A stretch of DNA of 64,000 bases from positions 24,700-88,699 of IMG/VR virus record IMGVR_UViG_3300045988_176129. One strand, written 5' to 3'. The stretch comes from a virus. The position numbers and the translations under genes are program-made. The first letter of the stretch is position 1. Each line of letters begins with the position of its first letter. Of the stretch, positions 42,812-43,105 are shown piece after piece. A model generated the notes under the pieces. The model had not been told where the DNA came from, did no database searches, and saw only the letters and a list, made by a program, of their open reading frames with translations.

Positions 42812-43105
42812 ATGATGAATTTTGGACGGGCAATTGAAGCATTAAAGAGCGGTAAGAAAGTAACAAGAGCTGGGTGGAATGGCAAGGGGATGTTTATTTA
42901 TCTCACATCTGGCTCAAAGGTTCCTGCTGTTTCAATGAAGCCAGAAACCGCAAACTACTTATTTGGGGAAAAGCTTCTTGAATGTGACGAAATAGTTACA
43001 ATCAATCCTCATATTGACATGAAGGCATCTGACGGAACAGTGGTGATTGGATGGTTTGCATCACAGACAGATATGCTTGCAGAAGATTGGAACGTGGTAG
43101 AGTAA
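42812..43105 (+). CDS. DUF2829/Tad2-like small protein (candidate Thoeris anti-defence sponge)
   Basis: Start moved to MMNFG with RBS aaggag; N-terminus NFGRAIEALKSGKKVTRAGWNGKGMFIYL recalls the DUF2829 signature. Confidence 0.4.
   Translation: MMNFGRAIEALKSGKKVTRAGWNGKGMFIYLTSGSKVPAVSMKPETANYLFGEKLLECDEIVTINPHIDMKASDGTVVIGWFASQTDMLAEDWNVVE

Follow-up and report, generated by a model that had tools for sequence, protein, structure and literature searches.

The small gene considered here raises the question of whether an uncultured phage carries a Tad2-family sponge against Thoeris defence and, if it does, which signalling molecule the sponge would take up. The gene lies in a 64,000-nucleotide stretch of viral DNA, which we call the window. 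The original prediction had described it as part of a run of small genes and as having a ribosome-binding site of its own, and this description holds. A run of small plus-strand open reading frames extends from 41518 to 45856 and includes the gene, the majority of its members have AGGAG-like sites, and an AAGGAG sequence precedes the tad2-like reading frame:

42812 to 43105, plus strand: tad2-like gene, an intact open reading frame of 97 amino acids with a full-length Tad2-like/DUF2829 domain

42798 to 42803, plus strand: Shine-Dalgarno sequence AAGGAG, read from the sequence, 8 nt 5' of the ATG at 42812 and 11 nt 5' of the ATG at 42815

The reading frame opens with an ATG at 42812–42814, is followed directly by a second ATG at 42815, and closes with a TAA stop at 43103–43105. 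Longer forms are available in the same frame. The longest mechanical reading frame comprises 126 amino acids from a TTG at 42725, and gene callers applied to public data give a 115-residue form from an ATG at 42758 (P0001; loci L002 and L003) that shares 41 nt with the gene before it. That a longer start lacks support had been proposed at the outset, and three comparisons agree with this view. In the 97-residue form, the PF11195 domain extends from residue 2 onward. Of 120 homologues, 70 have their first residue at the position of M2 and another 11 begin one residue before it, placing 81 within one residue of this position. In a related phage contig, L001, the protein is 93% identical and the AAGGAG is kept, and DNA similarity to the window starts at this ribosome-binding site and is absent further upstream, where the DNA is unrelated. 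On these comparisons, the starts at ATG 42758 and TTG 42725 are unsupported. Most homologues have MNFG as their N terminus. The candidate starts of the present gene are 42812 and 42815; in the annotation, the start belongs at 42812 (or 42815), replacing the public 115-residue call.

The original prediction had seen a resemblance to DUF2829 in the string FGRAIEALKSGKKVTRAGWNGKGMFIYL, which corresponds to residues 4–31 of the 97-residue translation. The resemblance extends over the full length of the domain. The Pfam profile PF11195 (Tad2-like, formerly DUF2829) matches protein residues 2–96 across profile positions 1–73 of 73, with an E-value of 2.9e-27 and a score of 95.4 bits, relative to a gathering score of 25 bits for this family; the DUF2829 hit whose absence would speak against the assignment is thus present. 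A phmmer search of the PDB matched all solved Tad2 proteins, led by SptTad2 (8wjd, 4.3e-22) and HgmTad2/AcrIIA7 (8kbi, 2e-20) and followed by pdAcrIIA7 (9kzr, 1.7e-18), ModTad2 (9eib, 1.6e-17; 8v3e, ≈1.5e-17), and SPO1 Tad2 (8sme, 8e-14; 8wje, ≈1e-13). At E ≤ 1e-3, 1,838 homologues are present in a large protein database, and PF11195 is found in all of those among the matches listed. In the same database, metagenomes contribute one exact match to the protein as well as relatives that are 93% and 90% identical to it. Homologues occur in 361 records of a phage collection, each less than 60% identical to our protein. Two PHROG families match the product as well, 1048 (1e-29) and 872 (9e-28), both annotated as of unknown function, and neither PADLOC nor NCBIfam returned a match for the product or its neighbours, which speaks neither for nor against the assignment. 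With its 97 residues, the product is a small standalone phage-encoded protein, and it clearly belongs to the Tad2 (DUF2829) family. It appears to be the sole copy, in that a hidden Markov model built from the 120 homologues found no second Tad2 when run against the window translated in all six frames. A phmmer search of the same translation with a total of nine Acb2 and Tad1 sequences, taken from Table S2 in Hadary et al. (bioRxiv 10.1101/2025.08.24.671296), found neither Tad1 nor Acb2.

A structural comparison with Tad2, suggested alongside the original prediction, gives the same result. We built an AlphaFold2 monomer model on the alignment of the 120 homologues (alignment A1), with a mean pLDDT of 93.8, a pTM of 0.80, and every residue at 70 or above. 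The model consists of a helix (residues 4–12), strands at 16–19 and 28–32, an insertion spanning 33–66, a strand at 67–71, a helix at 85–89, and a final strand at 93–95; the insertion itself is predicted to hold a strand (35–38), a single helix (44–51), and a second strand (61–64). The elements of the Tad2 fold, namely an N-terminal helix, an antiparallel β-sheet, a variable β2–β5 insertion, and a short C-terminal helix, are all present in the model. When it was compared with the PDB by Foldseek, all 24 matches at E ≤ 1e-3 were Tad2 structures, and the next match had an E-value of 0.7. The TM-scores are 0.77 for HgmTad2, 0.76 for SptTad2, 0.73 for ModTad2, and 0.62–0.68 for SPO1 Tad2.

The ligand pocket can be compared residue by residue with that of HgmTad2, in which W21, N22, G23, M76, A78, T82, V84, W87, L88, S90, T92, and D93 contact 1''–2' gcADPR (Li et al., PMC10680739). 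In that protein, the W21A/N22A and S90A/T92A/D93A substitutions markedly lower both binding and ThsA inhibition (PMC10680739). We mapped the pocket by aligning our protein with four solved proteins in MAFFT. The equivalent residues are W22, N23, G24, M70, A72, T76, V78, W81, F82, S84, T86, and D87, of which 11 of 12 are identical to those of HgmTad2, and both mutation-tested groups, W-N and S-x-T-D, are kept. The sole difference replaces L88 with F82, at a position where HgmTad2 makes a main-chain contact (PMC10680739) and where 101 of the 120 homologues have leucine. W22, N23, M70, W81, and D87 never vary across these homologues, and G24, S84, and T86 rarely do. A codon comparison with L001 shows 12 synonymous and seven nonsynonymous differences, with residues 53–97 synonymous throughout; at pocket residue S84, the codon switches from TCA to AGT with the serine retained. 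This pattern indicates that the tad2-like reading frame is under purifying selection.

Experimental phenotypes are available for several relatives. According to an earlier paper, inhibition of type I Thoeris is shared by the majority of the homologues tested. Table S2 of Hadary et al. gives the sequences of tested Tad2 proteins with their phenotypes against seven systems, and in a BLASTP search against the Tad2 proteins of this table, the closest is Tad2_83 (IMGVR_UViG_3300023280_000024), at 50% identity over the full length (E 1.3e-36). As tabulated there, Tad2_83 inhibits type I Thoeris, with validation by plaque assay, but none of the six other systems, namely type II and type IV Thoeris, two CBASS systems, and two Pycsar systems (10.1101/2025.08.24.671296). 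The two proteins share the sub-family motifs GWNGKGMFIY, INPHIDMK, and GW-ASQTDML, and both are standalone proteins of ≈92–97 residues. Tad2_83 differs in that its insertion is 4–5 residues shorter and of other sequence and that position 82 is leucine rather than the phenylalanine of our protein. The same table bears on the pocket motif more generally. All five tested carriers of W-x-x-S-Q-T-D listed in it (Tad2_70, Tad2_71, Tad2_83, HgmTad2, and SPO1 Tad2) inhibit type I Thoeris, and three proteins with altered motifs, ModTad2 (TWTPSVSD), Tad2_76 (SWVPSSSD), and Tad2_73 (GWNATQVD), are entered as noninhibitors of this system (10.1101/2025.08.24.671296).

Among the solved proteins, SptTad2 (8wjd) and HgmTad2/AcrIIA7 (8kbi–8kbm, 8wjc) are the best PDB matches by both sequence and structure, at ≈42% identity; a single predicted helix in the insertion is one of the points in which our protein differs from them. 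SPO1 Tad2 (gp34.65; 8sme/8smf/8smg, 8wje), the founding member, resembles our protein in its W-N-G loop, its S-Q-T-D motif, its similar size, and its being encoded by a phage; it differs in its 24-residue insertion with one helix and its occluded second pocket, and its identity to our protein is ≈38%. ModTad2/MoTad2 (9eib, 8v3e), a sponge for His-ADPR and cUMP, shares the fold, but it has TWTPSVSDIL in place of the GWFASQTDML found here and a shorter insertion.

Within alignment A1, a variant of the same pocket segment is present at positions 82–86. Approximately 9–11 of the 120 closest homologues (for example, P0010, P0011, and P0015) have GWNPSQVDM rather than GWLASQTDM. This resembles the GWNATQVDM of Tad2_73, which Table S2 lists as not inhibiting type I Thoeris, and may represent a specificity switch inside the sub-family.

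Because the sequence matches to Tad2, the structural model, and the conservation of the gcADPR pocket all point in the same direction, they support the reading of the product as a Tad2-like gcADPR sponge that the original prediction had advanced, with binding itself predicted. By analogy with its characterized relatives, the gene probably encodes a Tad2-family sponge, most likely for 3'cADPR (1''–3' gcADPR) together with the 2' isomer. As in the solved homologues, the expected assembly is a tetramer of four copies, in which two pockets lie where the dimers meet. There it would capture the ADP-ribose-derived alarm molecule from the TIR protein of a Thoeris system presumably carried by the host, with 3'cADPR and its 2' isomer as the likeliest ligands. 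With the ligand sequestered, the Thoeris effector ThsA would stay silent and the phage would complete its infection; the gene would presumably be expressed early in infection.

The Tad2 family is functionally diverse, with ligands that include His-ADPR, N7-cADPR, cyclic dinucleotides, or cUMP/cCMP, and our protein might therefore be a sponge with other or broader targets. Such a protein would bind His-ADPR (type II) or N7-cADPR (type IV) in the conserved pocket, or a second ligand (a cyclic dinucleotide, cUMP/cCMP, or a new signal) in a pocket formed by the β2–β5 insertion, or both. There is precedent for each possibility: Tad2_71 inhibits three types of Thoeris (I, II, and IV), a second pocket allows MoTad2 and Tad2_70 to inhibit Pycsar, and cGG and cGAMP are bound in the second pocket of HgmTad2 and SptTad2 (PMC10680739). 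In the latter two proteins, an insertion of 35–41 residues with a β3–β4 hairpin builds the second cavity, and S47A, F70A, and R31A/N85A abolish cGG/cGAMP binding (PMC10680739). The insertion of our protein comprises 34 residues (S33–P66 by that paper's boundaries), relative to 35–41 in the cyclic dinucleotide binders, with a predicted β3/β4 arm, and the model lies nearer to the long-insert SptTad2 and HgmTad2 (TM 0.76–0.77) than to SPO1 Tad2 (0.62–0.68). The sub-family also has a feature of its own, in that all 120 homologues carry H67 and D69, where the solved proteins have Y/C, Y/A, or I/F. Against cyclic dinucleotide binding, however, all four of the mutation-tested side chains of HgmTad2 (R31, S47, F70, and N85) are replaced, by T32, M42, I64, and I79, and none of the 120 homologues has arginine at 32 or asparagine at 79. 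Because these tested side chains are replaced, the sub-family lacks R32 and N79, and Tad2_83, a member of the same sub-family, is inactive on both CBASS and both Pycsar systems in Table S2, binding of the cGG/cGAMP type is not supported, and we set it aside. As for the conserved pocket, Tad2_83 is likewise entered as inactive on type II and type IV Thoeris, and the His-ADPR binders in the table have W-T-P-S-(V/I)-x-D or W-V-P-S-S-S-D, whereas our protein has W-F-A-S-Q-T-D. The pocket motif of the ModTad2 clade, T-W-T-P-S-V-S-D, is absent from our protein, whose G-W-F-A-S-Q-T-D is the motif of the type I inhibitors. Taken as a whole, a sponge with other or broader targets is unlikely. A narrower proposal, which we regard as a long shot, is that the INPHIDMK sub-family, with its 34-residue insertion and a pocket lining unlike that of every solved Tad2, uses a second pocket at the intra-dimer interface for an immune signal still awaiting discovery or testing, besides binding 3'cADPR.

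Two further readings depart from signal capture by the Tad2 pocket altogether. HgmTad2 is also AcrIIA7, an anti-CRISPR, and our protein matches both it (2e-20) and pdAcrIIA7 (9kzr, 1.7e-18); one GenBank phage homologue (H12) is annotated as an "anti-CRISPR protein," and AcrIIA7 is active as a core domain that lacks the N-terminal head (PMC13133391), a form that our protein shares. An AcrIIA7-like protein would act as a tetramer that binds tracrRNA in a basic groove and blocks assembly of the Cas9 ribonucleoprotein. In pdAcrIIA7, tracrRNA binding involves K58, K66, K71, K93, and R101 (PMC13133391), but the corresponding residues of our protein are K12, A20, K25, S41, and Y49, so that only two of five are kept, both of them family-wide lysines. 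The protein is moreover slightly acidic (10 K/R and 12 D/E, a net charge of about −2), a poor fit to RNA binding. On these grounds, we consider the anti-CRISPR reading very remote. Nor is it at all probable that the gene encodes a DUF2829 protein with a nondefence role or has decayed so far that its product has lost ligand binding. It is true that many family members have DUF2829 as the C-terminal part of proteins of 146–170 residues and that some tested Tad2 homologues are inactive: 5 of the 15 new homologues in the rows of the bioRxiv table covered here have no validated activity against the seven systems, one of them a truncated 60-residue protein (10.1101/2025.08.24.671296). The inactive homologues listed there, such as Tad2_69, Tad2_78, Tad2_80, Tad2_81, and Tad2_84, nonetheless have divergent or truncated pockets, whereas the reading frame here is intact and apparently under purifying selection and its gcADPR pocket is fully canonical. 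In addition, only ≈1% of Tad2 proteins are estimated to be without a functional gcADPR site (PMC10680739).

With a gcADPR sponge as the preferred reading, this uncultured, AT-rich, and tRNA-rich phage very probably carries an anti-Thoeris protein, by analogy with the tested homologues. Carriage of such a sponge is suggestive of TIR-based Thoeris signalling in the host, which is probably a Firmicute. Published work already covers the family, with its mechanism and structures, and one tested member of the same sub-family; the present protein is uncharacterized but typical, an ordinary member among the thousands of homologues that have been catalogued. The main value of the assignment is that of annotation, and it raises no new question.

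The window has a G+C content of 31.7%, and the tad2-like gene, at 41.5%, lies in the top 5% of 294-nt intervals. There are 21 tRNA genes on the plus strand between 13638 and 20160, and the window also carries members of PHROG families, an endolysin with Amidase_2 and PG_binding_1 domains, two subunits of topoisomerase II, and an NAD-dependent DNA ligase. A megablast search with positions 40000–48000 against 50,697 phage records returned no match, and a topoisomerase II subunit is at most 36% identical to its counterparts in Enterococcus and Listeria phage records and human faecal phage contigs. By these sequence comparisons, the virus is a large AT-rich phage to which no deposited phage appears closely related. 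Among the matches listed, the prophage homologues closest to the Tad2 protein come from Pectinatus, Sporomusa, and Paenibacillus, and the host is likely to be a Firmicute.

The gene lies in a variable part of the genome. Relative to L001 (positions 8650–14638), the segment from 41350 to 45527 is mosaic or hypervariable between flanks that are 95–96% identical, and small-gene cassettes within it are present, absent, or relocated between the two loci. One gene of 66 codons (41874–42074), for instance, is found downstream of tad2 in L001. The tad2 cassette (42794–43123) is itself 92.4% identical in L001, where it has other neighbours on both sides. A 141-residue protein encoded on the plus strand at 43255–43680 (phrog_4334, E 3e-37) is kept beside tad2 in L001, L002, and L003 while other neighbours change; searches of Pfam, NCBIfam, PADLOC, and the PDB gave no match for it. 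Pfam, PHROG, and PDB sequence searches assigned no function to either neighbour (42385–42798 and 43255–43680), so that the block is at most a candidate for an anti-defence island in the strict sense.

The cassette ends at a hairpin:

43115 to 43159, no strand assigned: perfect 19-bp stem-loop, AT-rich, 10 nt 3' of the tad2 stop and without a U-tract on the plus strand

This stem-loop (inverted repeat I3) has a predicted stability of −22 kcal/mol (z = −7.1), equalled by none of 200 shuffled sequences, and a terminator scan did not call it. Homology with L001 stops within its left arm, and in L001 a gene of 91 codons occupies the hairpin's place between tad2 and the gene for the 141-residue protein. 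The stem-loop forms the 3' boundary of the tad2 cassette, and it may serve as a transcript end, in transcript stability, or as a recombination boundary. At the other end, 5' of the small-gene run, a terminator-like hairpin (41283–41308) is followed by a TTGATT-17-TATAAT site (41306–41334), which is a candidate promoter for the run; a sigma-70 scan gave 32 sites relative to 31.6 expected from shuffled sequence, with no enrichment.

Downstream of tad2, beginning within the mosaic block and continuing past it, the window contains a set of RNA-repair-like genes (44117–49749) alongside the array of 21 tRNA genes:

44117 to 44977, plus strand: Thg1-like tRNA-His guanylyltransferase

45984 to 47219, plus strand: RNA ligase

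47527 to 48303, plus strand: Metallophos domain protein

48699 to 49193, plus strand: AAA_33/KTI12 P-loop kinase-like protein

49186 to 49749, plus strand: Metallophos_2 domain protein

This set and the tRNA array could counter host anticodon nucleases. A Thg1 gene was not called in the examined stretch of L001.

Two further genes lie upstream of the small-gene run. One, at 37669–38145 on the plus strand, matches Pfam Pyr_excise (E 1.2e-18) and encodes a pyrimidine-dimer DNA glycosylase, a repair enzyme of the T4 endonuclease V type. The other, at 38802–41255 on the plus strand, encodes a protein of 817 residues that matches the Pfam family MVP_shoulder (Major Vault Protein shoulder, 4.3e-16) and, weakly, SPFH/Band_7; its residues 446–745 match eukaryotic major vault protein chains in phmmer searches (4hl8, 2qzv, and 6bp7, E ≈5e-12). 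This vault-like protein is kept in L001 and L002, and its occurrence in a phage looks unusual.
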